Source: Owenia fusiformis (Eukaryota). From it: a stretch of DNA of 64,000 nucleotides. The notes beneath the pieces were generated by a model. The model worked only from the letters and a program-made list of their open reading frames with translations. It did not search any database and had not been told where the DNA came from. Location of the stretch: NCBI GenBank assembly GCA_903813345.2, contig CAIIXF020000001.1, positions 20,212,001 through 20,276,000 on the forward strand, in the 5' to 3' direction. Both the position numbers and the translations under genes were made by a program. Below are positions 32,501-56,500 of the stretch, piece after piece (position 1 is the stretch's first letter; the number at the start of each line of letters is the position of its first letter).

Positions 32501-35500
32501 GGTAATAAGTTTCTTTCAAATATGCACATTCAAGGTAATAACTCAGATTTGTGTTTCTTTTTTAGAGAATTATAATGTATCCACAATGTTCTAAAGTCCA
32601 TTTTTAAAAGACTACTGATAATGACTTTAAGTTTTTCAAAAACTGCTGAAAGATGATTTAGTGTCACCGCCAGAAGTGGTAGCATATTGTTGGTCTCAGA
32701 CTTTTTGTGGATGGTGTTCGGCAGTCAGCATCTGTAAACAAATGACAAGTGGTGCCATTTGCATGTTCCTTGTTAAAGACTTTATGATGATTATTTGAGG
32801 TTTTTCAAAGATTTCTGTCCTGTGTAGTCATGTAAGCTGTCAATAATTCAGTGTCTGATTGGAAACTTATCTTATTAAGTTGAGGGTGGTAGAGTTTGGT
32901 ATAAGAAAATTTTCCATCTTATGTCATAAGTCAATATTTGGAAGTAATGTAAAGTACTTGTAATGTAGCTAACCATTTAGATTGATACATTTAAGAAACA
33001 CAAAATTAATATATTCATGTTTCATAATGATGATTTCAATAAAACTCAAAACTCATATTATGTAATCAAATGGGATTCATTGAAAGGAGTTGGGTAAACT
33101 AGCAACAGAGAGTGCCCCAATTGAAGTGTGAAAAAACTTTTTTTAAGAATAGGAGAAAAAAACATCAGAAATGCAAAGATTGCAGTCTATATTTTTGGGT
33201 AGTATTTTTAAAAAAAATTAGAAAAATTGTTACGGTGTCTGGAGACCTTCAAAGAGGGTGGGGGCCAGAAGGAAAAAAATTCACATATTTTGCAACCCTC
33301 TTGATGAATTCCAATTTACTCAGCTATAAATGAATGTTTTTGATTTATCTGTCCAGGATTATGTAAATATATATTTATTTGATCCATACATACAATTGAT
33401 TTAAATACAGTTTAGAGGTAAGTAAAGCTTTGAAAGGACATTTCATGCTGAGTCTGGGTGACATTTTTATTCACTGGAGGTAGTAATCCTTTGAGTGTTT
33501 TCACATAGAGCATAACAAGTCTCCACTCTAATAAGTGCTTCTTTAGTTACATAAATGTTATATTGTTGCATACAAAGAATAATTTTGATGGAGACTTATT
33601 ATGCGCGATGTGAATTTTAGAACTTTATAGAAAATTTTGCCTGCCATTTTTGTTGATTATTCAAAATGGCCAAATGCTATTCATGCTGCATATGTAGGAA
33701 GCAGGTAAATTCTCCTAGAAAACGGAGAAAGGTTACACAAGATTTAGCTTCACAAGTCAAGAATGCCAAAGTTGGACGGATAATATGCAATAACTGTCGT
33801 CTAGATTCAAAACGAACCAACCATAACTGTCATTTGGTATATAGGCTTCGCTAAGCACGAGGGTTACAAAGCCAAAGAAAAACCTCTGCAAGGGCATTAT
33901 AAAATTTTAGATGCTAAAATACCTGAAACATCAAGTGGTTATATGTGCACAACATCTGAATCAGGTAGTTCAAGTGATGATGAGTAAAACTAATCAGAAA
34001 ATGTTTCATTGTTATTTCATTATAATCCAATGATGAAATGTGTTGAGATTTTAGATGTTTTTCACCTTTTAGGTGATCTCCAAGAAGTGATTATCTCCGT
34101 TATCTGTACTTACTGTTTCCTAGACATTATCAGAATGATTGATAATAAACTTAATAGTTGCTTTAAAATTATGTTGAATAATATCATTATGTTGAATTAT
34201 AATATATACAGTGTGTGTGTTTAGTGTGTGGTTTTTAGCATACCCTATGTCGCTAACAGGAAGCAGGACATATTTCTCATAAAAAATAAACATTACTTTA
34301 CGAGTCAAATTATGAAATGTACATTCTGAATTTAAATGAATTAAAAATAATAAAGTATTTTCATTATTTTAGGTACTTTTGTTCTCTTTCAGTGTGCGTG
34401 GGAAGGGCGGAATATATTAATATAAATATCTCATTATTGGCAAATTGCCAATTTACTATATATTGTAATTCCAACCTCTATGAGACTAAATTCCTACAGA
34501 TATTTGTGATATTTTAACCAAAAAGGTATATTTTTGTAGAAAATAATGAATTTTTTTAATTTGACCTTGACCTGGGGAATATGACCTTGACCTAAATTTT
34601 CATACATTTTTGAAACACATATATCACATAGATTAATAAAATAAAGAGAAAACTTGAAAATCAGGTGGGGCTTAAAATGGCCTTGTTTACCCAACTCCTT
34701 TCAACATTTCCAGATTAGGTTTTATCATATAGGTTGTTGGGGTCAGTGGCTTAATTTATTTAATTTTACAGCAGACATTAAACTATTGAGCATTCGAGTT
34801 CTATTTGGAAGGTCGAGAGTTGATTTTCAATTGAGCCGGAGTGACTTTTTAACATCAGCCCATAGTGTAGGATTTGATTCTATGTTTCAAAGAAATTGTT
34901 GAGGATTTTCCTCATTTTATATGTACTGATTCCAGTTGTACTAACTAATTGTTTTAATTGTAAATATATTTGTTTCCATGCAAAAATAACATTTACATTA
35001 ATACATGTAATATTAAAGTGGTTCAGTGCCTATTTTTGACCCTGAAATACCCCAACAGTTTCATAATACTCTTCAATATGCACAAACCTTCTATTTATAT
35101 TAAAGCTTAAAAATAATTCAAAAACTATGTGAGGATGTCTTATCAAACTGATAAGTACAGGTAAGATGCAGGTTTGTATTTTTGTCAGAGTAAGACACTC
35201 AACCATATTTTTGATTGTTTTCAGAGCTTGAGCAATGAGATTGATGAGCTAGAGAGAGCAAAGCAAGAATATATCAAAAAGAATGAAGACCAGGTAGGCC
35301 ACATTTCAATTTTCAGAATATATCAAGAAGAATGAAGATCAGGTAGGCCACATTTCAATTTTCAGAATATATCAAGAAGAATGAAGATCAGGTAGGCCAC
35401 ATTTCACTTTTCAGAATATATCAAGAGGAATGAAGACCAGGTAGGCCACATTTCAATTTTCAGAATATATCAAGAGGAATGAAAACCAGGTTAGTCATAT

Positions 35501-38500
35501 TTCACTTTTCAGAATATATAAAGAAGAATGAAGACCAGGTAGGCCACATTTCAATTTTCAGAATATATCAAGAAGAATGAAGACCAGGTAGGCCACATTT
35601 CAATTTTCAGGCCAACCAAAATCATAGAATTATACATTATGCATAGATTTTTCATAACAATATTTAGATTGTGTTGGAACAATAGTTAAATTGGCTTTAA
35701 TTGAGAAGATGCTATTTATATGCAAGGGTCCTTTATAGTGAGATCACAGTGGCAAACACCCATGTATTAAGAATTCTTTATTCCCAAGTTGCACATGTTA
35801 CATCTATCTTAACTGTAAAATCAATATAGAAATATATCAAGCTATAAAAATAATTCAATAGGATTAGACAAAAGTCATGGTATATATAGATAAATAATTT
35901 TAAGTTTTGGTACTGGGTTATTGAAATGAATATGATGCAATAAAAACATGTAGAAAATTACTTGTATACAGTATATATGTAAAAATCTAGCCATCCATAT
36001 TATATCTGTGAATATAATTCCACATTTGCACGGATAAACCTTGTAACCCTCAAATATTGCAAATAATCAACATAGGTGGTTTTTATACAAGGTGAAAGGA
36101 GGGTGTGGCATCATGATTGCATTATAGAAAAGTAACAACTGTATCATGATCCACATAATCTGGTGTCTCAACCACAGCTGCTTTATGGTCTACATAACCT
36201 GTTGATTTCGCCACATCTGTGCTATGATCTACACAACCTTGTGTCAGAGCCACATCTTTTTTATGATCCATATAGCCAAGATTCAGAATCGCAGCATTAT
36301 GGTCCACATAGCTTGGGGTTTGTGGCCCATTTTTGTCAATGTAATCTTGATTCTTTTTCACATTTTCATTATGATCAACATAGTCTGGGTGTTGGTCATC
36401 TGAAACAGATGACGTAATATTCTGACTGGTATGAGACTGAGTGTTTTGATTTGGTATTTCATTTTCAAAACAATCATGCTTGGCATCACTTTGAATTTTG
36501 GTATTTGGTAGTTCATTCTCAACATAGCCTGTGTCAGGGTTAAGGGAAAATTCATGCTTGGCATCAATTTGAGTTTTGGTATTTGGTAATTCATTTTCAA
36601 CATAGCCTGTGTCAGTGTTTAGGGAAAATTCATGCTTAGAATCATTTTGAGTTTTGGTATTTGGTAATTCATTTTCAACATAGCCTGTGTCAGCGTTTAG
36701 GGAAAATTCATGCTTAGAATCATTTTGAGTTTTGGTATTTGGTAATTCATTCTCAACACAGTCTGTGTCAGTATTAAGTAAAAAGTCATGCTTGGCATCA
36801 CTTTGACTTCTGATATTTGGTAATAATTTATTTTCAACATAGCCTAGGTCAGGGTTCAAAGAAAATTCATGCTTGGCATCACTTTTGGTATTTTGTAATT
36901 CATTTTCAACATAGCCTGTGTCAGGTTTAAGAGAAAATTCATGCTTGGCATCACTTTGAGTTTTGGTATTTGGTAATTTTTTTTCAACATAGCCTGTGTC
37001 AGGTTTAAGAGAAAATTCATGCTTGGCATCACTTTGAGTTTTGGTATTTGGTAGTTCATTTTCAACATAGCCTGTGTCAGGTTTAAGAGAAAATTCATGC
37101 TTGGCATCACTTTGAGTTTTGGTATTTGGTAATTCATTTTCAACATAGCCTGTGTCAGGTTTAAGAGAAAATTCATGCTTGGCATCACTTTGAGTTTTGG
37201 TATTTGGTAGTTCATTTTCAACATAGCCTGTGCCAGGGTTAAGAGAAAATTCATGCTTGACATCACGTTGAGTTTTGGTATTTGGAAGTTCATTTACAAC
37301 ATAGCCTGTGTCTGGGTTAAGAGAAAATTCATGCTTGGCATCACTTTGAGTTTTGGTATTTGGTAGTTCATTTTCAACATAGCCCGTGTCAGTGTTAAGA
37401 GAAAATTCATGCTTGACATCACGTTGAGTTTTGGCATTTGGTAGTTCATTCTCAACATAGCCTGTGTCAGGGTTAAGAGAAAATTCATGCTTGACATCAC
37501 GTTGAGTTTTCGTATTTGGTAGTTCATTCTCAACATAGCCTGTGTCAGGGTTAAGAGAAAATTCATGCTTGGCATCACTTTGAGTTTTGCTATTTGGTAA
37601 TTCATTTTCAACGTGACCTGTATCAGGGTTTATTGCTTGTTTAACATTCACTTTTGCTTTGGGCTTTGATCCATTTTTACTTGTTTCAGGGTGAATGGGT
37701 TTCCCAGTACAGGGTTGACGACATTCATTTGAACCTATTTGAATCACATAACCATTGTCATTCACTAGTCCAGGAAGGTTTGCCATCAATTCATGCTCAG
37801 GTTTAATCGCTGTAATGGCTCTGCTATCATTGTGATTCAGTTTGTCATTGTCAATTGAAATGTCTGTCATTTCAGTTGATGCACCAAATTTAGAGTTTTC
37901 CTGAAAATACACCAATACTGTTCTTTACAAAATATGACAATATATTTCCTATTTGATTCCTCTAAATATATTTGAAAACTGAGATATGCCTCACATTTGA
38001 AAAAGTTAACATTTTGTTATGTCACCACCACAAGAGTTTGTCATTCGGCATCTATAATAAATGGCAGTTGGTGATGACATTTTGCATTTTAATGCCTTGT
38101 TCTCGTTTATCATGTTCATGTGATTAATGAAGGTTTGAATAAAGAGAAATGTGTAAGTGTTTATGAGAGGGGAATAGCAGTTGATGTACTTGACACTTCC
38201 TATACATGAGGAAAACAGTTCCTACCATTATGCTTTGATTGATATGATATTTTAAATGTTCTAACTCAGTTGATCACTCTCTTAGGTGTCACTGGGGGGC
38301 ATATCCCAATCTTGACCTCTAAGAAACAAGTGAAGAACAGATTCTTACCATTGGTCTGTGGTCAGTCTCTGGAATTGTCTGATAGTAATTCCCTATAATG
38401 ACTGTTGGATACTCTAATGTGCCACTACATGTGGGATTTGTTGTAGGGGAGGTGAAATAAGGAACCTGAAAATGATTATGTTAAAATTATAAATTTTGGA

Positions 38501-41500
38501 CAACGGTTATTCAATGCTTTAAAACGTTCATTTTGAAAATCAGAACTGGAGAAAAAAATTCAGAACTTTTAAAGCCTAATTGTTGGAGCATTTTGAAAAA
38601 TTTATAAATGAATAGGTGCCGACACTACTTACACTGATGAGTTGCTTGGTCTTCTTTTCCTGCTTTATCAAAAGTCTGAAATACATAGGAAACAAATGAA
38701 AAGTGCCATTAATCCGAACTAGTGCTCATATTTTATTTTATTGGGATCCACTGAAAGGTTGCATTTTTGATAAATTAATGTTTGATAATATTCACTCTAT
38801 GTAGCATTTGCATCTCTTGTTCTGAAACTCCATTAGAAAAGCTCACTTAAGAGTCAATACTGTGTATAAGATTATGATTATACTTACGTAATAATGAAGT
38901 AAATTCCCAGACATACAAGACCAAAGAAGAAAAAGCCAACTATGACTATCAAAGCTGTCATCCAAGGCTTCAATCCTGGACCTGTAACCCAATTTAATCT
39001 AATAAGATCTCATATGCATGAAAAACCATTTGTTGAATTTACTCTTTAAAAGATTTTGTATTATCTTGAATATGTACAGAGTACTCTTGTGTTATAGTTG
39101 ATGTTATTTTTCCATCATATGTACTGATTACAAATCTAGTTTATATCAATATAAATATTTCAAATAATGAGACTTCTCCTCCGATTATGTAAGGTATATA
39201 TGAAATTTACTTTGCGGACATCATGATGCCATAAATTGTCAAATCTGACAAAATTAAAAGTTTGAATTTACCTGCCCTAACAAGGGTTGTGATGGTTGGT
39301 GTATGGGGACCTTTCCCATGTTTAGTGACCGCCTCCAATGTGAGACTGTAAAAAGCCCCACCCTGCAGGCCTTCTATCTTGTGTTGTGTTGCAGAGCTGG
39401 CTACAGTGATGTTTACAGTTGTCTCTAATAGGGGGGTAAAATACAATATTCATATTCACTGGGAAACAAAATACGGATGTATCGGTCATTTGCCAATGAT
39501 TATCATATACATGTAAAGTAAAGATGAGCACGTGCAAATGAAAAAGTAATAGCATATTTTAATGGGATCAATTATAAGAACATTATAAATGAAGCAATTT
39601 AAATGATTAAATATGAAAGAATTAGCACCTACTTTCACAGTCTTGTTTTCTACAGTAGCGAATCATATAGTGCTGCACTATTCCATCATATTTATTGCAT
39701 GGATAGTGGCTCCAGTGCACTTGTAAACTCTCTGCCTGTTTGTTCTCCACAATAACATTGAGGGGATGTTCTCGTGGTGGAGCTATTCAATAAAATAAAC
39801 TTTCATTTCAATCAATCCAAGAAAAAGAAGGATGGTCAAATATTCTTCATAAAATTTTTAAACTCTGAGGATAGGTGAAAGGGGGTCATTTGAACATAAC
39901 TGTTTTTTGTGCATTCCATCATTGGTAGAGATGTTGAGGTTGTTTATTGTTTTAAAATAAAATAATGAAACATATGTCTCATCTTGAGTATGACTAAGGG
40001 GTTAATGTTCTTGCAGAAGCTAAGGCTTCATAAAGCAGTTTTCAGTCCACTGGATTCCATTATAAAGTAAAATATTACATGTAACCAGCCTTATGTTCAT
40101 CAGTATCATACAAGCATTCAGCCTACTGGATTCCATTATAAAGTAAAGTATTACATGTAACCAGCCTTACGTTCATCAATATCATATAAGCATTCAGCCC
40201 ACTGGATTCCATTATAAAGTAAAATACTACATGTAACCAGCCTTACGTTCATCAGTATCATACAAGCATTCACCCCACTGGATTCCATTATAAAGTTAAG
40301 TATTACATGTAACCAGCCTTACATTCATCAGTATCATACAAGCATTCACCCCACTGGATTCCATTATAAAGTTAAGTATTACATGTAACCAGCCTTACGT
40401 TCATCAGTATCATACAAGCATTTGGCCCACTGGATTCCACTGCTTGTTTCAGCAAATTCTGTAGACAGACCAAATAGGTAATTTCCAGGTTTACCAAGTT
40501 CAAGAAGGCTGAAGTTCTGGGTATCACCAGCAAGAGTTTGCCATTGCAAATCACCCTTAAACAAAGAGAGGAATTACATTATTTCTAATATTTGAAATAA
40601 TGGCCCCTTACTTTGTGATGAACACTACAGTAGTTGTGAAAAAAAATATTCACAAAAAATCTATTTATTGGCTCATTTTGTGCATGACTAGAGGCAATCT
40701 CGGTCTGTTACATGTCCAAACCCTCCAATATATGGGTTTCATTCAATTGTAGTTTTACAATGTAGTTTGAAAACATCATATTGGAATCTTTAAATAGAAA
40801 GAGGATGCATTAAAAGACAATTCATCAGTTTGTGTGAGCATTCATTATTAATGTTTGTAGATTACCTGACATTTGTCACCTGGAGCCCTGTGGCACCAGT
40901 AGGCTGTATGGTTATATGGACTATTGGACCACTCAAATATGACCAGACTCTGATCAGGATGCTGCTCTCTCCTTACCATCCATGTCATAGGATGTTGTAT
41001 ACCTGTTAATTAATCAGAGGAAGAATCAAACATTTGACTTGTACACCATGATTATGCAAAACTTATTAAAGTTTTCAAAATGATTATCACTTCACAATTC
41101 TCAATGGCACAACTTACGTTTATTTGCTTTGTGTACAACAATTCTTTGAATTGGTAATGAAGAATTAGTTCCCTTCTTTGTAGCACTTGTCACTTCAAAT
41201 GTCATCTGAATATCTTGTGTTTTCCGGAAAGTTCCTGAGGTAGAAGTTGAATAAAGAGGTATCTCATTGTTAGGACTGACCATTCTTGGGGTATAAGTTA
41301 CGACACCATTCCAAAGTCTTTTCATGATTTCTTGCCAGTATATTGTAACATATGACTGCTCTCCTTCTGTATATTCATAAAATGCTCCTGTTGTTAAAGT
41401 AGGAATTCCGCCTGGCACTGAAAAATATCAATATAAAGTCATCATAACTGGGTGCATTGTGGGTGCCACAGCCTCTACCATCGCTTGAAGAGAATAAACA

Positions 41501-44500
41501 TCCTTCAGAAGAATTATATGACAAGGATCCTTGATAAAATCATACTAACTGGGATGTTTTATCAGAAGAGTTTGTAAAGTTAATCATTTCCAAGTTTATT
41601 GTTTTTTGTCACCATCACAAGTGGTGACATATTGTTATGGTTAGTCCCATGGTAAGGCCCATAGCTCATAATAAGCTAAAGCCCAACATACACCAATGGG
41701 GCACGATGGGATCTCCATATGCTTAACATTGCATGGGACCTTGTGGGCTTAATGTCCCATCTTGCCCCATCACATCCCAACCGTTTCCGGTCAGTATGAC
41801 CTGTGATAACTTGAAGTTTCGAAGCACTCGATGTTATTCTGGATTTTAAACGACAAATCGATGGGATATTGTGTATTGAAGTTGGCGACAGAAACAGCAA
41901 GGTAATGCATATGATATATGAGAATCCGAGTGCTATATAATGTAAACTAAATAGTCAAAATTATTAGTATAAAGTAGAAAGCTACCGGTAAGATTTGGAT
42001 CAATTTTTTCATTCAATCCAGTAAGCATTTGTGATTTAACTGATACAGTTTTCAGACACTGCATGTACTCGGTTTTTCCCATATCATTATAACATTGGTA
42101 ATATAGCCTAGCTTTCAATAGTGTAACACGGTGTTTTTGTTAGCGTTCAAGGAGCTTAGCGGGCACCCAAAGGGGAGATTGAAAAGTGTATTTGTAAATA
42201 GTCTATTGTATTTGTGTAAATGTATTTTTAGAGCATTAATTTGTATTTTGTACGAGTTAGTGTGGGGGGGGGGAGTTATTGTTGATGAACGTAGTACCCT
42301 TTGGGAACCCGCGTAACCTGTACATAGGAGTTACCTAAATTTGGAGATCCTGAAAGCTGTTCGTTACTTCTTATTTTCGTGTGACTGTATTGTTTATAAA
42401 TGAATATCTTATTATATGAGGAACTCAACAAATTACTAATATCTAGGCACTGTTCCTCATATGTTTTAGGAATTTCTGCCTTTCCAGGCAAACCAGTATG
42501 TTGGCAAAATGCATATATGTACTTGTAATCAGACTGATGTATTGGTTTGTGTTTGATTGTGTTTGTGTTTGTTTTGCTTGCTCATCCAAGTCACATGTAT
42601 CTAATTGTACACGTACATGTAGCTCATACTTTTCAAATGAACTTATCAAGAGTCCCTATAGCCCTGCAAGATCAGGAATAGGGTAATATGCCCTGTTGTA
42701 CTGAATCATGGAGAAGAGCAGTTGGACTTTTTAATTGGCACCACATATTAAGCTTGGAAAACATATTGGAACCGGGCTCTCAATTGAAATGTGAATACTC
42801 TACTGAATTTTACCAGCTGGCTGTTATTTTAGTTGCATTTTTAACTCTCTTACTGATTGTAGGAGGGTTACATGTATCTAGTTGTAAATTGCAAATTCTG
42901 CCCTTTGTCTTGGTATTTGCATTTCACATAGTCTACATTTGCATTATTTTATATACCATGTTGTCTATAATAAGATATTTGGTGAGTCTCTATTCACATA
43001 CAATACCAATTATACTTAATATTTCATTACTAACTGTGGTCATTTCATGTATACCTGGATCTACATTACTTATACATAATCCAAGCCACATGTATTACTT
43101 ATTGCTCCTATTATGTGGGGATATTGAAAGTAATCCAGGCCCATCAGATGACTTAAAAATTTTGTTCAGCAACATTAACAGTGTGAAGGCAGACTCACTA
43201 AATCGCTTAAATTTCCTGAAAAATTATGCAGCAAAGGAGGAGTTTCATATTATAGCCCTATGCGAATCGGGTAATATCACACCTGAAGATCTAAAATCAA
43301 AGAATTTTGACATAAGTAACTATGGCGCACCAAAATTTTGCTCAAACTCTGGCAGAGGCTTGATTTTATGGTCCCATGATTCTGTTGAAGTAAAAATTTT
43401 GGATCAATTTAGATCAGCTGACCTGGTCAACTGCTGGATTGAAGTTAAACTAAACTTCAAAACATTTCTATATGGATTTTTTTACAGATCACCATCAATG
43501 AATGCTAATGATACCAGGCGGTACTTCTCTGATTTCAAAGATAATATATCTAATGTGGCAATACATCCGAATAATGGGATATTTATTAATGGGGATTTTA
43601 ACGCAAGAAATGATGTATGGTATGAACATGATCATAACAATTTAGCTGGAACTGAATTATTTAGTACATTAACTGAACTTGATCTTTTGCAACTCGTCTC
43701 TGAACCAACCAGAGTCAGGCAGAACTCAAAGACATGCATTGATTTACTCATAACCAATTCCGAACATGCGATTTCTCACAGAGTTGATCCCCCGATTGGA
43801 AACTCTGACCATTGTGCAATTGTGTCAACCATAAGATCGAGGATCCCAAGAGAGCCATCTATTAAAAAGACCATGTGGAACTTCAGTAATGCTGATCTAC
43901 AGCAACTTAATGCCAATATTACTAACTCTGATTGGAGTTTCATATTTGAAGACTCTGTCAATAGTGCAACCAATAGATTTATTGATAATTTTATGTCCAT
44001 AATCAAGACAAGTATTCCTTGCAAAATTTTTTCTACACGTTATGATGATCAACCATGGTTTAATAGCTCAATTAAAAAGGAAATCTATAAACGTAATAAA
44101 CTTCATCATAAATTCAAAGCAACAGATAACATAGAATTTTATGAAAAATATGTGACCCAAAATAGAAAAGTAAATCTATTGATTAGCGAGGCCAAAGCAA
44201 ACCACGAAATCAAACTCAGAGAAAAGATTGATAATGTTTCAAAAAACTCTACAGAATATTGGACTTTAATCAAAACTCTTTTGGGTAAAAATCATACAAG
44301 CTCATTTCCTGTTCTTATTGATCCTTTGACAAATATCTCAGCATGCAGCAGCTTTGAAAAGGCTGAAGCTTTTCTAAAATATTTTGCAAGTAAAAACTGT
44401 GTTGATATTAATAATACCAATGAACCACCACTTGAACTTAGAACAAATACAATATTGCCAGAAATCAGAACTTCTCCACAGGAGGTATTTGAGCTGTTCT

Positions 44501-47500
44501 CTAACCTAGATGTAAATAAATCCCATGGACCTGATGAGATAACCAACAAAATGATTAAACATAGCGCCTCTTCTCTTTGTCTTCCTGCCAGTCAATTGTT
44601 TAATAGAATTTTAGATGAGAATATTTTCCCAGACATCTGGAAAGAAGGCACTGTCATCCCAATATTTAAGAAAGGGGACAGAGGCACAATAAGTAATTAT
44701 AGACCAGTGACCCTCTTATGTACTTTTTCTAAAATATTGGAAAGGATCATCCATAAGAGATTACTTCTCCACTTGCTTGAAAATAATTTATTATACAAAC
44801 TCCAAAGTGGCTTTTTACCCAAACATAATACAGTGAACCAACTTATTCATATTGTTCATGACCTCCATACTAACATCGATAATGGTAAAAATGTGCGTTC
44901 CATATTTCTTGATCTCACGTCAGCGTTTGACTTAGTTCCACACCATCTTCTTTTAAAAAACACTAAAAGCCTATGGATGTAATGACAATTTTATCTCCTT
45001 AATGACATCTTATCTTTCAAATAGGAGAATACAAGTACGGGTAAACAATAGTTTATCCAAATGGTCAAAAGATCGGGAACAGCGTAATGCCAATTTTGAT
45101 CCTGGCCATAATGGTAGTCATAATTTTACCATAAATGCGGGTGTGCCGCAGGGGTCTGTTTTGGGACCCCTATTATTTCTAATTTATATTAACGACTTAC
45201 CCGACAATCTCAACTCAAAAACTTTTATTTTTGCTGACGACACTTCACTGTATGATGCGTATGATAAAAATGAAGTCTTTTTAAACATTAATCAGCCATT
45301 ACAAGATGACCTTGACACTTTACACCAATGGTCATTACTATGGAGAATGAAATTTAAAGCTCAAAAGAGTGCTGACATAACTTTCTCGGGACAACGCACC
45401 CAGAATATTAACCAATCTCCCCTAACTTTGGGAGGTGAAGAGATACCCATTTGCACAACGCATAAACATCTTGGACTAGTCCTGGATTGTAAACTTAATT
45501 TCAATGCCCATATAGATCAATTAATTGGTAAAATAACCTCCCTAATTAGACCCTTGAAAGCTCTCTGTAAAAATTTACCAGGTAAGCACCTTGAAAAAAT
45601 CTATAATGCCTATTTTTTACCACACTTTGACTATTGTGACATAATCTATAATAAAGCCTCCTTAGCAAAACTACAAGCTCTCGACAGACTGCATTACAAA
45701 GCAGCATGCCTGGTGTCTGGTGCTATCCATGGATCAAGTACAGACAAAGTTCTTTCCTCTATTAATTGGAAAACCCTCTCCTCGAGAAGAGATGAACATT
45801 TAAAAATTTTCTTATTCAAAGCTCGCTTCAACTGTTTCCCACCCTTTATTTGTGACCTAGTTCGTACATATGAAATCACTCATACCAGAGACCTCAGATT
45901 CCAGCATGACTATAGAATTCCGAATCATTTGAGTTCATCTTGTGGTAAATCCACTATTTTTAATTCCATGAAGGTTTGGAATAAACTGCCAGCAGCGATT
46001 AGAGTTGGTCAACCCATTTCAAGGTTTAAAAGGTCAGTGAGAGAGTACACGAGCCTTGTCTCTGTATCAACTACTAAAATGACTAGGTGCATGCCAAGGC
46101 AAATAGAAATCAAATTCAATAGACTAAGAGCTGGTCTACTTTTGAACAGTCACTTTTATTCTCATAATTTCCTGTCGGTAACAGATCCCAAATGTCAATG
46201 TGGTGAAAAATTTCAAACCACTGAACACTTTTTAATCAAGTGTCCACTGCTCCTTAATGAACGTGAAGTTCTTCTTGCAGGACTATCAGACTTGGACTGT
46301 TTACGAGATTTTGAAGCATACTCAATTCAAAGGAAAACACATTTTCTATTAAATGGAGATGAAAATTTGGACTTTGAAACAAATGAAAAACTGATTGAAA
46401 TCACTGCTCACTATACATTTCAAGCTATACTAAGTCTGGGACAGGGTAATTTTTAACATTTGAGCTTGATACCACAACTTGGTACTGGGGAACAAGCAAA
46501 CCAAACATCAACAAAAAAGAAAAAGCTTCTCTGAACATTTTGTGTATTTCTGAATATCAATTTTTATTTATCAAAATGTTTCAATTGCCGATAATGTTGT
46601 CCTGTCAACAATGGCAATTTGTAAAAATGTAACCGATTGATTTTTAGAAATAAATATGAAGTATGTAAAAAAAAAAAAAAAACATCCCATGAGGTCCCAC
46701 ATAGGCTCGGTGGGGCAAAATACCACTGAGTCCCATCAAGCCCATCGAGAATGAACATGTTCATTCTTTCCATGGGACATTGTGGAATTTTCGATCATAT
46801 GACGTGTTGTGTGAAGCCCAACATACACCAATGGGGCACGGTGGGATTTGATGGGGACACCATGGGGCATGATAGGACTCTATGGGGCAAAGTCATCAAG
46901 GTACCATGGGATTTTGTGGGATTAGATGGGACAAGATGGGACTCATTGGCTAAATGAGATTTTGCCCCATTGGTATAGATTGGCTTAAGGAGATTCTCAG
47001 TGCCATATCTATGTCAAAACTTAATTGTTAATTGTTATGCCATGACATTAACATGCAAGTGATTTATAATACAAATATGAAAATGGATGTGTTTTAAGCC
47101 TCATGGCACAATTCCTTAGGTAGCAAAATTCTCTTGGGGGCATCTCTAATTTCTGTAAAACCAAAGATCTGAGAATTTATTTTCTTGATATTGATTTCTC
47201 ACCATCCTCGGGTGTTTTTGTCATGACTTGAGATGAACTGCTGGGATAGCCCACTATGCTGTTGTTATAGATGGCTCTAACAATCACTTCTATTGTATAA
47301 TTTGTGAAGGGCACAAGACCTGTGATGTGAATGGCTTCTGCCTCTATTTGTAGTCTTAATGTCTGGAAGTAAATGAAATATATGGAGATGATTTAAAGTC
47401 CAGGTGTTTTTCTTTATATAGATGTCGCCTGTATTTTTGCATAATAAGGTATGGCTGGGGTTCACAAAAAGACAACAGCTCTCTAAACAAAATCTTATAA

Positions 47501-50500
47501 ATGAAAAATCCAATGCTTGGTCTATTATGTCTAATTTCAGTCATACATTTTAAGCAAACACTAACTTGAAAATCTTACATATTATTATGGTTACCTTATT
47601 TTTGTCCCATTTTGAAATGTAACTGATATCATAGACAACTTCTTTTCCAATTGGGGCAGTTCTCGTCCAGTTGACATAGATACATGTGCTGTTAATAGGT
47701 GTAGCCTTAGCAATCACAGGATCTGGCTCAACTAAAATTAATATACAGTATATATGTGCATGTACAGTGAATAGCAGCTTGAAATCTCCGGAAATTTTTA
47801 TCAAAGTATTTGATATTACATGTAATTGTTATCTAATTTTTTTTGTTTATGCCTGGTTTATATTGAACTTTTTTTAGCTCATGGGAATAAATTGCTACTC
47901 ACTGAATGTTTGTGGATTTCCTATGAATGTCTGCGAATTTCCTTCAATTTTCAGTTTATTTGCTATGCTTACTTCAAACTTGATATATGTTGCATTTTGT
48001 GGGGTTTTTACTTTGCAAGCTGCTCTGTCAGTGTGTGATGTGGACCATGGACAGGCTGCTTGTCTATTGCAATTTTCGCTGAAATTGTGTGCTCATTCAT
48101 TCATTTAAATCAACAATGTGTAGAATGTAAACAAATGCATACATAAAAATCATGCTTTGGATATCACTGCTTAGGTCAATATGATTTGCTATGTTTCATC
48201 AGTGCCATTTTCTAGTTTTGTTTCCAATGCAAAAAACTTACCATTGATATTCAAACTTTTGATGGAAAATAATGGTTTGAATATGCTCCAGAGTTGGCCC
48301 TGGTGATACTTAAGTCTTCGCTTCTGATGAGTGTAAAAATATTAATAAAAATAGGTACAATACCATCCATTTGATGCTGTATATATAAGGTGAGAATGGA
48401 GTATATATGGTTCATGATATTACTGAGTTTATTTGTGAGCATTCTAGCATTCTCACAGAAATTAATTTCTCTTATACAAGGTGACACCAAAAAAACAACT
48501 CACCACCATGTAACAAATGTAGTTACATTTGTATGCAGACTAATGGGAAAGCTCCCAGGTTGCCAGCTGAATTCTAACAAGCCATTCCAATTTCTCATTT
48601 TACACTCAATATTGTGTGGCTTTTCAGGTAAATCTGTGAAAGAAATGGAATATGTACATTAATATTAGGATTCCTTGCTCTGTGTTCGACCAGATACTTG
48701 TTCAATTGAGGGAGCGTTTGAATTATTTATGGTCTTGGTATCTGTAGTGTTTTATGAACATATGAAGAATGGTGATTGCTAAAAGTGGTATGTACTATAA
48801 TGTCTAAATTATAAAATGCTTACATCCTATAAGAGTCATTGTTTCTGCCAATATCTCATCCTCTTTAATGAGGCAGTTGTGAAAGCAATATCCTGTTGTG
48901 TTGAGTGTAGACAGGTGAAAGTGTGGCATATTAGGAACAGACAGGAAAGCTGTATGGTTATTGACCACTGTGACATATTCAGCTGGATATTCTATGGGGT
49001 TGCCATTATTGAAACTATTTGATAGATACTGAAATAAAAATGATGCCTTGCACAAATGCCAAGAATTATATAGAACACAGGCACTGGCACAAATAGTTGT
49101 CCAAAGAAAATCTTATTGTTGATTATTGAGATAAATATGGTTGCTCAGTATCAAAACTGAAAAGACTGTATGTGTGTCCTCTGGATAAGACCAAAAATAT
49201 ACTAGCAAGACTGAACTGAATTGAACACTAATATCATATTACCCTGGTTTAAAATTCATATTGAAAATCAAGCATGAAATAACCTATATTTATATAAAAC
49301 ATCTAAAATAATGTGGAAATAAAAAAACATAAACATTACATATATATAAAACAACATAAAAAAACTTATTAAAAAAATGTAACATTATTTAAAGAAAAAT
49401 TACTAGGACACCATTCACTGATGAATCAAAGTAGATCAATCAAAAAGCAATAAATTTACATGTACATTTTGAAATTGTCCTAATCCTCACCTCAAAAGTT
49501 ATATCATGTGCATTTTTGTTTCCCTGGTAACCATCTCCAATGATGCATGTTAGGTTCAAATTTCCCCCCACTGCAGCACAGGATTCACCTCCATCCATAT
49601 GCTTACATAATGGATCAGCAATGATTCCTATAATAGAAAGTATTCATTAAGATGATGGGTGATGTGGTGAGAGAAATGTTCTAAATGTTTATGAAGAGGG
49701 GGAGAAACCACAGGGTTCAAAGATGACGTACGTCTATAATGTAAATCTGTATTGATATGACCTATGGTCCTGATTGGTCCAAATAGACAAACAAAAATGG
49801 CGGATTCAAAATTTTCTAATAACGCTTTGAATAATATTATGTTAATTTCTGGGCGTGTTAAACAATATCATAGCCTGTTATTTCACATCATGATAAAGAA
49901 AGATGTAAGGAATATGTATACACCCTATGCAGACAGAGCCTGTGGGAAATATTGGGTGCGGCGCAAATGAGCAGAGGGTGCGGAGCTAACGGTCATTTTT
50001 GAATTTAAAATTGGGATATTTCTGAAACTAAGCCGTTTTGGGACTTCAAATATACCAAGATATGTGTATTTGACACCAAATATCAATACAATTGTGAAAA
50101 TAGTAGCGCAATTCATTCTATAGCGATGCAGTGTGCCTTAAACCTTTCCCAGACCTATATATTTTGAAACTATCCTTTTAATACTGCGTCCCCAGCATTC
50201 ATAAAAAATGGTGTTCAAGATACACTACCCATGCAAATTATTTTTGCATCTTGGAAGCCAGGCAGTATCTGTGTGATTTTATAAAAATTCGGAAATGTTC
50301 TTCAGATATGAGCCCCCTCTAAATATTGGGTGCGGAGGTACGTTTATGGAGCTGCTCCGCACCCAATATTTAGAGGGGGCTCATATCTGAAAAACATTTC
50401 CGAATTTTTATAAAATCACACGGATACTGCCTGGCTTCCAAGATGCAAAAATAATTTGTATAGATAGTGTACCTTGAACACCATTTGTCACCACCAAAAG

Positions 50501-53500
50501 TGGTGACATATTGTTATGGTCTCCGTTTTTTGCGACGGCGTCCGGCGGTTTGTGGTTGGCGTCCGGCGTCTGTAACAATTTCTTACAACTTCCTATAACT
50601 TAACAAATACTGTTTAGACTGACTTCAATTTTTTTCTAAATCATCTACATGTTCTCAGAAGTTCAAATCTGACTTTAGATTTGACATTTGACCTTCAATG
50701 ACCTTCTCAAGGTCAAAAAGGTCTTTTTTCAACTTGCTTCACATTGACTAAATTTTTTTCAAAATCATCTACATGTTCTCAGAAATTCAAATCTGACTTA
50801 AGATTTGACATTTGACCTTCAAATCTGACTTTAGATTTGACATTTGACCTTCAATGACCTTCTCAAGGTCAAAAAAGGTCAAAAAGGTCTGTTTTCAACT
50901 TGCTTCAAATTGACTAAATTTTTTTTTCAAAATCATCTAAGTGTTCTCAGAAATTCAAATCTGAGTTAAGATTTGACTTAAGATTTGACATTTGACCTTC
51001 AATGACCTTCTCAAGGTCAAAAAAGGTCAAAAATGTCTGTTTTCAACTTGCTTCAAATTGACTAAATTTTTTTTTCAAAATCATCTACGTGTTCTCAGAA
51101 ATTCAAATCTGACTTAAGATTTGACATTTGACCTTCAATGACCTTCTCAAGGTCAAAAAAGGTCAAAAAGGTCTGTTTTCAACTTGCTTCAAATTGACTA
51201 AAAAAAATTTTCAAAATCATCTACGTGTTCTCAGAAATTCAAATCTGACTTTAGATTTGACTTAAGATTTGACATTTGACCTTCAATGACCTTCTCAAAG
51301 TCAAAAAAGGTCAAAAAGGTCTTTTTTCAACTTGCTTCAAATTGACTAAATTTTTTTTTCAAAATCATCTACATGTTCTCAGAAATTCAAATCTGACTGT
51401 AGATTTGACATTTGACCTTCAATGACCTTCAATGACCTTCTCAAGGTCAAAAAAGGTCAAAAAGGTCTGTTTTCAACTTGCTTCAAATTGACTAAATTTT
51501 TTTTTCAAAATCATCTACGTGTTCTCAGAAATTCAAATCTGACTTAAGATTTGACTTAAGATTTGACATTTGACCTTCAATGACCTTCTCAAGGTCAAAA
51601 AAGGTCAAAAAGGTCTGTTTTCAACTTGCTTCAAATTGACTAAAAAAAATTTTCAAAATCATCTACGTGTTCTCAGAAATTCAAATCTGACTTTAGATTT
51701 GACTTAAGATTTGACATTTGACCTTCAATGACCTTCTCAAAGTCAAAAAAGGTCAAAAATGTCTTTTTTCAACTTGCTTCAAATTGACTAAATTTTTTTT
51801 TCAAAATCATCTACATGTTCTCAGAAATTCAAATCTGACTTTAGATTTGACATTTGACATTCAATGACCTTCTCAATGTCAAAAAAGGTCAAAAAGATAT
51901 TTTTTCATCTTGCTTCAAATTGACTAAATTTTTTTTCAAAATCATCTACATGTTCTCAGAAATTCAATAATGTCTTTAGATTTGACATTTGACCTTCAAT
52001 GACCTTGTCAAGGTCAAAAAAGGTCAAAAAGGTCTTTTTTCAACTTGCTTCAAATTGACTAATTTTTTTTTTCAAAATCATCTACATGTTCTCAGAAATT
52101 CAAATCTGACTTTAGATTTGACATTTGACCTTCAATGACCTTCTCAATGTCAAAAAAGGTCAAAAAGGTATTTTTTCATCTTGCTTCAAATTGACTAAAT
52201 TTTTTTTCAAAATCATCTACATGTTCTCAGAAATTCAAATATGACTTTAGATTTGACATTTGACCTTCAATGACCTTGTCAAGGTCAAAAAAGGTCAAAA
52301 AGGTCTTTTTTCAACTTGCTTCAAATTGACTAATTTTTTTTTTCAAAATCATCTACATGTTCTCAGAAATTCAAATCTGACTTTAGATTTGACATTTGAC
52401 CTTCAATGACCTTCTCAAGGTCAAAAAAGGTCAAAAAGGTCTGTTTTCAACTTGCTTCAAATTGACCAAATTTTTTTTTCAAAATCATCTTCATCTTTTC
52501 AGAAGTTCAAATTTGACTTTACAAGTTCTCAGAAATTCAAATCTGACTTAAGTTTGAACTCATAATATTGTGAGCAACTAGGTGGTGACATTTTGTCATG
52601 TTAATGCCTTGTTTATGAATGCTGGGGACTCAGTATTAAAAGGATAGTTTCAAAATATATAGGTCTGGGAAAGGTTTAAGGCACACTGCGTCGCTATAGA
52701 ATGAATTGCGCTACTATTTTCACAATTGTATTGATATTTGGTGTCAAATACACATATCTTGGTATATTTGAAGTCCCAAAACGGCTTAGTTTCAGAAATA
52801 TCCCAAATTTAAATTCAAAAATGACCATTAGCTCCGCACCCTCCGCTCATTTGCTCCGCACCCAATATTTCCCACAGGCTCTGTCTGCATAGGGTGGTAT
52901 ACATCGATTAAAAACATCACAACCACGTGTTATATTCAAAAACTAACAGGTGAGAATTGGCGCAAATGAAGATGGTATGCAAGCGACGTAATATGTCTGT
53001 CATCACTAGAGCTCTGGGGGTTTCCCTCCTCTTATGTTTATGTATGTTGAGATAAATTCATAAACTACTGAGTTGTTATTAGCAAATTATACATGTTTAT
53101 GTTGGTCTGTTCACTTTCAGTTAATGATTTATTTTGTAGAGTTTAAGGGCCGCCTGAATCAATTATCAATTAAATACCGATCTCTGCTTATATGTTTGAT
53201 TTATTATCCTTTTTTCTGGAAATCTGAATCTCATTAGTAGATTAAATATACATCGTCAATTAATGATCATCTAAAGTGGATACACTACACAGTAAAACCT
53301 GTGTAAGTGGAACATCCTTTGGACCACCATTATTGTATACTTCAAGTTAAAAGATGTTATAAACTTGTGGGTTCCACTTGTGGGTTGCTCTATTTACAGA
53401 CAGGTGTTTCACTAAACAGTTTTTACTGTATTTAGTAAGTTAAAAAACAGACAGCGCCAGGATATATCATGTGAGAATGAGTCTACTCACTTCCCTTTGT

Positions 53501-56500
53501 TAGGCCCTGCACAACTTCAAGAATCATTTGTAGAATAAAGACTTTCTGCATCAGGGTCATATTGATAATGATATAAGACCAATCTCAATTTAAGTTGAAT
53601 CCAAGCATTATCTGGAAAGTAGATACATATTTTAGTATATTGGCCTCGGGAAATATCATATGGACACTCGGCCTTCACCCTCGGTCAATATCATATTTTC
53701 CTTGGTCAATATCATCTTAAAAATAAAATTCATATTCCATCCCTCTCATTAAATAACCTCTATTTATCTAATACACCTCACATATCAAATACATACCTGC
53801 ACATATATGGGTATGTATAAGATATGTGTGGGTATGTATTATATACCCACACATATCAAATACATAACCATTCATGTCTTAACCACACATCTTACATCTT
53901 TACACATCATCACATCTACTTTAATCTTGACAGTTATACATTATTCAGCAGAGATATAATTTATGGTTTCACAGTGCTCTTTTACTCCCCACATAGCCAT
54001 ACGATTTTCATTACAGAGCAACAGTGATTATCGATTCATATCTGTTCATTTTAGACCGTTGTATGAAGCACAGGTGAACAGTAATGTGATATAACATTGC
54101 TTTTCCCCATTATAAAGACATAAGGAAAAAGAATCAATACAGAAAATGTATCCTTTTTCGAATAATGTTTATTCCATATGATCATTCATCTATATTTGAT
54201 TTATCATATCATTAGTTAATTGAATGATTCTTTGGTTGCCTTGGTAACAAAGAATGTATAGCACAACTCAGGCGAATTGTTTCTTCATTCCGTTTTGTCT
54301 CTGTCTATTGTACTATATTGTGAACACCACATCTTTTTTGTGTTATCAGTTGGTGTTTGGCTGTTGTTCAGCATTTGGTGGTTGATGTATGGCAGTTAGT
54401 GTTTGGTGTCTGAACAAATTGCAGCTGGTGACCTTTTGCATCTTAATGTCTTGTTATGTCACCACCAAAAAGTGGTGACATGGTTTCTATTTTTTGTGGC
54501 GAGTTTGGTGGTCAGTTATCGAAGGGTGGCAGTTGGCGTCTGTAACGAATTCTTACAACTTCCAATAACTTAACAAATACTGACTTCAAGTTTTTTTCAA
54601 AATCATCTCCAAGTTATCAGAAGTTCAAATCTGACTTTAGATTTTAGATATGAATGATCTTCTCAAGGTAAAAAAGATTTTCTTTCAAAAAGATTTTCTT
54701 CAACTTGCTTCAAGTTGACCAACTTTTTTTCAAAATCATCTACAAGCTCTCAAAAGTTAAAATCTGACTATACATTTGACCTTCAATGACATTTCAAAGT
54801 TCTCAGATATTCAAATCTGACTTGAGATTGAACTTATTATATTGTGAGCAAATAGGTGGTGACATTTTGTCATGTTAATGCCTTGTTATGGTGTGCTGAT
54901 AATTCTGACAGTCCTACATGTATTAATAGTGAAAATATTCTATTATTATAGGACAATTACAGGATGTAGTTTCACTTCCTCAAAGAATGTCTGTTTATAC
55001 ATATCTTACATGTATATGTTTTGAGAGATCATATTTTACTGATTGTATCTGTAAGAAAACCAGCTCACTAACATTAACATTTTTGTCAAATTAAATGTGC
55101 AACAGTGCTTAACTACTGTAAATACTGTATCCAGATGCCATATTCAAGTAATAAAGAAAAAACAACATTCTTCTTGATAACTGTGTAAATAAAAACAAAG
55201 AGGGGAATGGGCTTTATAAATGCCTAATGCATTCACTGTTGAGATTCAGTTTATTTTGATAGGAAAATGTGGGTGGAGTTGAGGAGGTTTTCTAGGAAAT
55301 AATTTTAATGATATCTGATATGCCATTGTTTCATATCCATCATTCATGAAAATATATACAATACATACAATTTACTGTAAACATTTTCATTTCCACATAT
55401 ATGTTTTTTACACATCACATATTATTATAAATTAATGATTTTACTACATTGTAAAACATGTAACATTGTAAGAATGCTTGAATAAGAAATACATTGCTAA
55501 GAATTTCAAAATTCATGAAAATTGTACAAAATGAATTCAACATTTCATTTTCTTGCAATGTTTATACAGCTTAACAATACTGTGAAAATGCCATGAATAA
55601 CAAATTGGTTCGAAAATAAGGGAATGGTAAAAAAATTAGCTTAACTTATCTTTCTATTGATTTTGAGAAGATGCTTTAATCACTGTTGTAGAGAATTTGA
55701 TAATCTGATAATCATAGTTCTTAATAATTCATTATTGTTGAAATGGTGGGAAATTCAAAATCCCAAAACCTTTATTTATATTTTCAAATAAGATTCAATA
55801 TTAATACATAAAGCTACATACCTTTTTAGTCACCAGTACATGCTCTGTACGCTTGCAATATTCTTGCACAATCTCCAAGACAGTGTGTTCATAGTAGTAT
55901 CAACCAGCAGGTTATGTTGTGCCTCTAGGAGTAAAGAAGTTTTTGTTCTTGAGGAAGTTGGTTACTCATTAAGCTTCTGCTTAACAGATCATGATGACTA
56001 TGAATCATGTCCATATCGAGGCTTCAATTGGTGGAGGGTGGAGCATATCAACATGTACCCTTGAAGTCAAAGCCTAGCGAATAGGCGAATCTCTCTTTTA
56101 AAGAAGCAGCATCAATATTCAACATTTGTATTAACCTGTTTTGACACCTGAACCAGCCATGGTGGGGGGGGGGGGTTCCCCTAGAGCAAAAGGTGTCAGG
56201 GAATCTTCAATATTGTATGAAACATTTTAGGTTGGCCTAGAGTAAAAGCCCTTTAGGACTGAAGTAATATTTTTGTTAAAAATGAGCCTCAAGTTGCCTT
56301 CGCTTGATTTGCCACTCTGCTTCACCAAATGAATTATACATGTATTTTTATTAGTTATTTTTTAGTTAGAATGTCATCCTTTACACCCTGTGACTTATAA
56401 TGTAAACACAATGTCACTTTCTGGAAACTTTCATTTGTATGCTTAGGCGTAGCCAGGTGGTTGCCCCCCCCCCCCCCCCCCCCCCCCGGCTGCAAGCTGA

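Follow-up and report, generated by a model that had tools for sequence, protein, structure and literature searches.

The window analysed here, the whole stretch of 64 kb of DNA from Owenia fusiformis, carries on its minus strand a gene for a gp130/Domeless-like receptor. The terminal exon of this gene (exon 16 of 16) contains the segment 36122-37630 with its tandem tyrosine repeats, which lies within a minus-strand open reading frame of 600 codons. Fifteen exons with AG/GT ends can be joined in frame from 49627 down to 36122, and exon 1 is found at 53560-53491 (Table 1). The product of the 16-exon model is the database protein P0001, a polypeptide of 1314 amino acids that bears the source label Owenia fusiformis; its cytoplasmic tail comprises about 645 amino acids and contains 24 tyrosines in total.

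Table 1. Parts of the receptor gene and of its tail (positions in the window)
Feature	Position	Strand	Content and support
Exon 1, coding part	53491..53560	-	ATG, probable signal peptide; matches the N-terminus of P0001
Exons 2-7	47203..49627	-	Ig-like domain and cytokine-receptor homology domain (CHD); in-frame AG/GT junctions, alignment with IL-12Rbeta2
Exons 2-7, singly	49491-49627, 48824-49028, 48504-48633, 47903-48078, 47595-47731, 47203-47362	-	
Exons 8-12	39272..41417	-	Three membrane-proximal FN3 domains; exons 11-12 spliced in RNA
Exons 8-12, singly	41118-41417, 40866-41002, 40399-40555, 39633-39782, 39272-39424	-	
Exon 13	38888..38981	-	Transmembrane segment; model and RNA
Exon 14	38633..38675	-	Basic juxtamembrane segment
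Box1-like K-K-T-x-x-x-I-x-[VIL]-P	Exon 14 and first codons of exon 15	-	Common to all five paralogues
Exon 15	38349..38465	-	Four tyrosines, YPTV among them
YPTV	38400-38411	-	YxxV of the SHP-2/SOCS3 type (motif class after a passage in PMC1963337)
Exon 16	36122..37900	-	Terminal coding exon, 592 aa and stop; joint 38349/37900 supported by RNA
YVIQ	37739-37750	-	Sole YxxQ; NGYVIQ also in the C6 paralogue
Young array	36464..37630	-	78-bp (26-aa) unit in 15 copies; Tyr in 13, YxxN in 12
Old series	36125..36397	-	Seven 11-13-aa units, of which six have Y-[VIM]-D-[HK] and one has Cys

Transcription was assessed by comparing four sequencing runs with positions 37553-40030. X1 is DNA; no run is annotated as RNA, and X2 was taken as such by guess, its introns being without depth, a common repeat apart. 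Contig 10 of X2 (2603 nt, no mismatch) spans all five introns of this interval, and its length agrees with 2507 bases of coding sequence preceded by a short leader. It is spliced in frame into exon 16 and stops within unit 1 of the young array, so that the repeat exon is indeed reached by transcripts, as the first-pass annotation had supposed. Letters specific to units 11 and 12 of this array are present in X2 at the same depth as the contig. The raw run X21 yielded a single read apiece for three of the five joints, among them the joint between exons 15 and 16, and no read at any of the five was found in X22 (about 6% of the run read); the DNA run X1 contains none of the five splice joints. 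Since so few joint reads were recovered with about 6% of each run read, expression in X21 and X22 is low. A 40-nt contig from the array has a depth of 110 in X2, as compared with 15 for unique sequence, and the best-fitting 40-mer of the array occurs in five copies in the reference; contig depth not being copy number, this is a hint only that more array copies exist than the reference contains.

The receptor gene as a whole apparently lies antisense between two exons (35225-35294 and ~60350-60477) of a coiled-coil gene on the plus strand, and non-coding minisatellites are common within the window. In two places, an exon end has been tandemly duplicated together with its splice donor: as 76 bp × 5.2 in receptor exon 10 (40041-40439, minus strand), where the first of the duplicated donors is used in the RNA contig, and as 49 bp × 7 in the coiled-coil host gene (35266-35610, plus strand). 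A satellite array of 136-148 bp units in about 12 copies occupies 50786-52521 in receptor intron 1, and two LINE-type retrotransposon insertions are present, one at ~42500-46500 (receptor intron 7) and the other at 14953-19977.

Class features of the predicted receptor

The best match of P0001 in the PDB is IL-12Rbeta2, to which residues 112-627 align continuously (E 1e-10), and the nearest clusters in the Atlas are homologues of LIFR, the leptin receptor and gp130 (0.96-0.97); the initial assignment to the cytokine receptors is thus upheld, the gene being gp130-like. Group 2 (gp130-like) class I receptors are described in a passage of PMC1963337 as comprising an Ig domain, a CHD, extra FN3 modules, a transmembrane segment and a signalling tail, and this topology is present in P0001. 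The signature C-X(9-10)-C-X-W-X(26-32)-C-X(10-15)-C of the first CHD fold is found in incomplete form; its spacing (10, 28, 11) and the tryptophan are kept, and the second cysteine is replaced by phenylalanine. In the paralogue P0002, the full Cys/Trp pattern of the CHD can be read by eye. The WSXWS motif of the second CHD fold is absent from P0001, in which YPSSS aligns with WSNWS of IL-12Rbeta2, and both of its tryptophans are missing in all five paralogues; the same source mentions slight variability of this motif among class I receptors, for instance in GHR (PMC1963337). Because WSXWS and the second signature cysteine are missing, P0001 is, as judged from its sequence, a gp130/Domeless-like receptor rather than a strict member of class I.

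The tail possesses both a YxxQ and a YxxV motif, in the form of YVIQ and YPTV; the first of these is retained in the C6 paralogue and the second is not. All five paralogues have a conserved basic segment with I-x-[VIL]-P behind it, an arrangement that resembles the LP site of Dome; this Box1-like motif differs from the canonical Box1 of the form PxxP. In Drosophila, a juxtamembrane LP motif binds the JAK Hop, and Dome has a YxxQ, according to PMC4751595; by analogy with the Dome LP motif, the Box1-like segment of P0001 may serve in JAK docking.

Tyrosine repeats in the terminal exon and in the paralogues

Two series of repeats of different length and age follow one another in exon 16. For the young array, Tandem Repeats Finder reports a 78-bp unit × 14.9 at 36474-37630 with 90% matches, and the translation resolves it into 13 units of 26 amino acids, one of 24 and one of 27. 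G-Y-V is found in 13 of these 15 units (10 with TGYVEN and one each with TGYVVN, TGYVEK and LGYVEN), and YxxN in 12 of the 13; unit 1 has histidine and unit 12 cysteine at the position of the tyrosine. The two indels between units, −6 and +3 nt, are both multiples of three and preserve the frame. Units of the old series are spaced at 13, 11, 12, 13, 13 and 13 amino acids, and the seventh, GCVDH, stands in register with cysteine in place of tyrosine. YVIQ lies about 40 amino acids ahead of young unit 1 and is the sole YxxQ among the 24 tail tyrosines. The first-pass description of this segment was accurate with respect to the tandem 26-aa array with its 13 GYV units, one His and one Cys, the frame-preserving indels, the single YVIQ upstream of the array, the six Y-[VIM]-D-[HK] motifs in their order, and the total of about 19 amplified tyrosine motifs (13 young and 6 old); the in-register Cys unit had not been listed. 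Its analogy with YxxQ docking of the STAT3 type applies to YVIQ and fails for the 19 amplified motifs, none of which is YxxQ.

Across the array, the coding frame is the only one of the six that is free of stops (0 versus 5, 17, 19, 28 and 86), although a stop-free frame is by itself not significant under neutral change (P 0.38). No second occurrence of the 78-bp array was detected elsewhere in the genome. The possibility that its unit is a simple dimer of a 39-bp unit was ruled out, as the halves are alike at 17 of 39 positions; between the tyrosine half and the C6 unit, 20 of 39 positions agree at the best of 78 offsets. Pfam matches of the array (Tax, SapB_1, Adeno_E3) were below the cut-off and were rejected.

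A search of the genome with exon 8 yielded five copies. In a tree of ectodomain pieces, the window gene and the C6 paralogue group together (85/84), P0002 joins them (100/100), and the two C4 genes stand apart. The C6 paralogue carries a 39-bp unit × 27.7 (QNPGYVDHNAAVA), and P0002 two 39-bp blocks, × 5.8 and × 3.4, so that unit numbers differ between the paralogues. The two C4 paralogues are free of arrays and have 12-15 dispersed tyrosines, with YxxH motifs; these genes (L020:5404-6537 and L022:4454-5950) share the ending QRADSGYTE[FS] and Y-C/Y-Y motifs (DYCA, EYCV), features that the genes with arrays do not show. At C1:29.0-29.1 Mb there is another receptor subfamily, which has a motif of the WSD type.

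The old series of the window is homologous to the 39-bp arrays of C6 and P0002. In all, 28 units of the 13-aa GYVDH type were scored in C6 and 12 in P0002; four P0002 matches off the 13-14-aa register were left out of the conservation counts and the unit tree, as was one C6 unit (AYVDH) that escaped the motif anchor. Unit identity between genes amounts to 53-62%. The nearest neighbour lies within the same gene for 27 of the 28 C6 units and 11 of the 12 P0002 units, and each of the seven units of the old window series has its nearest neighbour in C6; little of the unit tree is resolved, with 3 of 41 branches starred. We infer from this pattern that one ancestral 13-aa unit was followed by separate expansions in the three paralogues. 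Counterparts of the 26-aa array are present in C6 as two single, diverged units in which threonine and cysteine replace the tyrosine. The first of these contains, ahead of the C6 array, a one-base frameshift in the terminal exon (L017:5604, C6 ~3675600), which reflects an error of assembly or else a null allele; given this frameshift, the C6 array may be untranslated, even though its 28 GYVDH units are otherwise open.

Relatives were also sought in the databases. With the tail as query, a shared-word search of the protein database returned P0001 and P0002 only; the ectodomain returned these two and, via FN3 only, a fish receptor phosphatase; and a profile of the paralogue exons again recovered P0001 and P0002 alone. 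HMMER run against 1.84 billion representatives gave 22 hits, consisting of P0001, P0002 and 20 others, and the four of these 20 that were inspected are all unrelated repeat proteins; the Atlas provided no usable match for the tail. The searches made thus disclosed no relative outside Owenia fusiformis, a blank that carries little weight, the tail, ectodomain and profile searches relying on shared words.

Selection on the tyrosine motifs

The proposal of a phosphotyrosine scaffold had been tied by the first-pass annotation to a tyrosine better conserved than its neighbours across units, and this is not what the 26-aa array displays. Its tyrosine is kept in 13 of 15 units, no better than neighbouring positions; two distinct tyrosine losses stand against 29 amino-acid changes over 26 columns, as compared with 0.9 losses expected under neutral change. 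Overall constraint on the array is weak as well, with 12 synonymous events observed versus 7.6 expected (P 0.055; 12 gap-free units). In the C6 array, 23 of 28 units have the tyrosine, a proportion close to the mean of 78% for the spacer positions; synonymous exchange between TAT and TAC nevertheless gives this codon a low pN/pS (0.14 versus 0.62).

The expected motif-specific conservation is, by comparison with the spacers, evident in the old series of the window. Tyrosine is retained there in six and aspartate in all seven of the seven units, whereas the spacer consensus is found in two to five; pN/pS of the motif core is 0.20 versus 0.79 for the spacer, and 3 of 30 first- and second-position changes fall into the four core codons of the 13 (P 0.007). 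It should be noted that positions −1 to +3 served to anchor the units, a choice that inflates the conservation measured there, and that neither the units nor the sister paralogues are independent of each other. The array-free genes afford a semi-independent check: histidine occupies position +3 at 6 of their 27 tyrosines against a background of 2.8%, and glycine position −1 at 8 of 27, in counts that overstate the number of independent events, these genes being sisters. Because His at +3 and Gly at −1 are enriched in genes without arrays, the G-Y-[VIL]-x-H motif is, by this measure, older than the arrays. The sites of the old series are probably functional as docking sites, and those of the young array are best read as redundant or as passengers.

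A proposed docking code, its rivals and known systems

Putative partners for such sites are encoded in the same genome, in which 55 SH2 matches were found. A JAK-like gene, whose exons encode FERM, pseudokinase and kinase domains, is located at C3:12801295-12811911 (L049-L050); in the genome, the FERM_F1 profile matched and the FERM_F2 profile did not. This gene conflicts with a statement in a passage of PMC13203501 that the JAK of Owenia fusiformis lacks FERM. The STAT gene on C1 encodes, after its SH2 exons, the sequence E-G-Y-V, which is taken as the STAT activation site on the basis of its position and contains the same G-Y-V as the receptor motifs. In the same gene, one exon of the DNA-binding domain is present as two neighbouring copies (C1:53979425-53979852; L043) that have diverged and may be mutually exclusive, and a second, very divergent STAT-like gene is present at C4:2828000-2841200 (L045-L046). 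In the STAT5 SH2 domain, a valine at pY+1 is accommodated by a pocket of hydrophobic character, according to an excerpt of PMC5067585, and since STAT5 reads valine at this position, the G-pY-V motifs are plausible STAT ligands.

We suggest, giving this reading an even chance of being right, that the gene encodes a JAK/STAT-type receptor in which a docking motif of the family was multiplied by minisatellite expansion, the old series being functional and the young one redundant and weakly selected. A ligand would pair the receptors, JAK would bind the Box1-like VP motif and phosphorylate tyrosines of the tail, and the SH2 domain of STAT would dock on G-pY-[VI]-x-[H/Q/N] sites. The G-Y-V-type motif would represent the family's own docking code, dispersed in the array-free paralogues; the ancestor of the three others would have acquired it within a 39-bp unit, which then expanded separately in each. 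In the window, the old series would have aged, its spacers drifting and its Y-x-D-H core being kept, as is to be expected of working docking sites, and the related motif GYVEN would later, and recently, have expanded as a 78-bp minisatellite. The young array would thereby add 13 redundant candidate sites, each under little or no selection, and the likely net effect would be that STAT, or some other SH2 protein, is bound with high avidity by a long, disordered tail. A further-reaching proposal holds that coding minisatellites set the signalling gain in an annelid receptor subfamily; its paralogues would separately have multiplied the non-canonical STAT motif G-pY-V-x-H/N into about 10-24 sites, in numbers that vary among individuals and tune the amplitude, duration or clustering of JAK/STAT signalling. 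This proposal strikes us as rather improbable.

The arrays might instead be passengers, that is, tolerated products of slippage that are selected for frame only and copied their tyrosine by chance, while signalling proceeds via the unique YVIQ, YPTV and YQTI. We regard this as possible but doubtful. It accords with the lack of tyrosine-specific conservation in the 26-aa and C6 arrays, with the tyrosine-free sister units in C6, with the high background rate to which the window's intronic arrays (49, 76 and 148 bp) point, with the conservation of NGYVIQ between the window gene and C6, and with the fact that two paralogues get by on dispersed tyrosines. The passenger reading sits badly, however, with the retention of Y-x-D-H in the old series despite the drift of its spacers, with the fact that none of the separate expansions (the 78-bp one of the window gene, the 39-bp one of C6 and both 39-bp blocks of P0002) is without a tyrosine motif, and with the enrichment of the motif in array-free paralogues. 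Phosphorylated arrays could, on the other hand, act as a decoy or sink that binds STAT, or SHP2, SOCS and adaptors, unproductively and so dampens canonical receptors of the WSXWS type, much as Et/Lat dampens Dome. The ligand-binding signature is degenerate, the genome has 55 SH2 matches and a separate WSD-type receptor subfamily, and Et/Lat is inhibitory, binds Hop and STAT92E and has YxxN sites, as related in PMC4751595; nonetheless, P0001 has lost neither the Box1-like motif nor its YxxQ, its tall ectodomain is complete, and Et/Lat is short-tailed, unlike P0001. We consider such a role unlikely.

Whether the tail is folded bears on a further alternative, in which the 26-aa array forms a rigid beta-solenoid or hairpin ladder whose tyrosines are structural and unphosphorylated. 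AlphaFold2 models the array as a beta-solenoid of three strands per unit, and pLDDT reaches 70-85 in the first 200 residues. However, the same repeat read in a non-coding frame was also modelled as regular (mean pLDDT 68), Foldseek found no PDB match for the array model at E<=0.001, and AF2 is reported in the abstract of PMC11795689 to invent confident beta-solenoids for repeats; the model was consequently set aside as uninformative. By composition, the tail is disordered (FoldIndex −0.23 for the 26-aa array and −0.12), in agreement with the initial proposal, and we judge a folded spacer to be very improbable. Scarcely credible is an assembly artefact or an untranslated exon. The RNA contig ends in unit 1, and raw RNA is thin (single reads at three of five joints in X21 and none in X22); yet both the spliced run and a DNA run independent of it contain the letters specific to units 11-12, splicing preserves the frame, and homologous terminal exons exist in the paralogues.

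Characterized cytokine receptors possess a handful of docking tyrosines. The paralogues, whose closely related ectodomains are joined to tails with arrayed sites numbering zero, about 10, 19 or about 24, represent a natural test of the relation between site number and JAK/STAT output, and Y-x-x-H/N is a candidate invertebrate STAT docking code other than YxxQ. Should the young array be a passenger, minisatellites would create signalling motifs ahead of selection. The recurrence of arrays in three paralogues raises their significance, and the lack of tyrosine-specific selection in the largest arrays lowers it.

With gp130 and the Group 2 receptors, P0001 shares the topology of Ig domain, CHD, three FN3 domains and transmembrane segment, a single YxxV and a single YxxQ, as well as a putative Box1-like motif with proline. 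It differs from them in lacking WSXWS and the second CHD cysteine, in its long tail with 24 tyrosines (gp130 has five distal tyrosine motifs, according to an excerpt of PMC13203501), and in that the amplified motifs are YxxN and YxDH rather than YxxQ. Dome and Et/Lat are likewise gp130-like receptors of invertebrates, with a membrane-proximal JAK site of the hydrophobic-Pro type, and two YxxN sites of Et/Lat are suggested, without having been mapped, as STAT92E sites in PMC4751595; those receptors have one or two YxxQ/YxxN motifs, in contrast to the 12 YxxN and 6 YxD[HK] in tandem in P0001. In IL-4Ralpha, STAT6 docks at Y575, Y603 and Y631, 28 residues apart, as stated in a passage of PMC8442009. 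This even spacing of STAT docking tyrosines resembles the 26 residues of P0001, although IL-4Ralpha has three sites, not 13-24, and belongs to a different receptor group. Multivalent tyrosine motifs in disordered regions are found in the YxxP substrate domain of p130Cas, the ITAMs of the TCR, the YDxV motifs of nephrin and the EPIYA motifs of Helicobacter CagA, and in CagA a variable number of repeats alters SH2 binding. None of these is a cytokine receptor, their motifs differ, and binding has been shown for them, whereas the sites of P0001 are candidates. A literature search by title and start of the abstract, with most subscription journals outside its scope, returned no tandem tyrosine array in the tail of a cytokine receptor. 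The array-bearing receptor is a new form of a known kind of receptor, and among what is new here are the arrays of two of its paralogues, the dispersed motifs of two others and the contrast in conservation between the old and young series.
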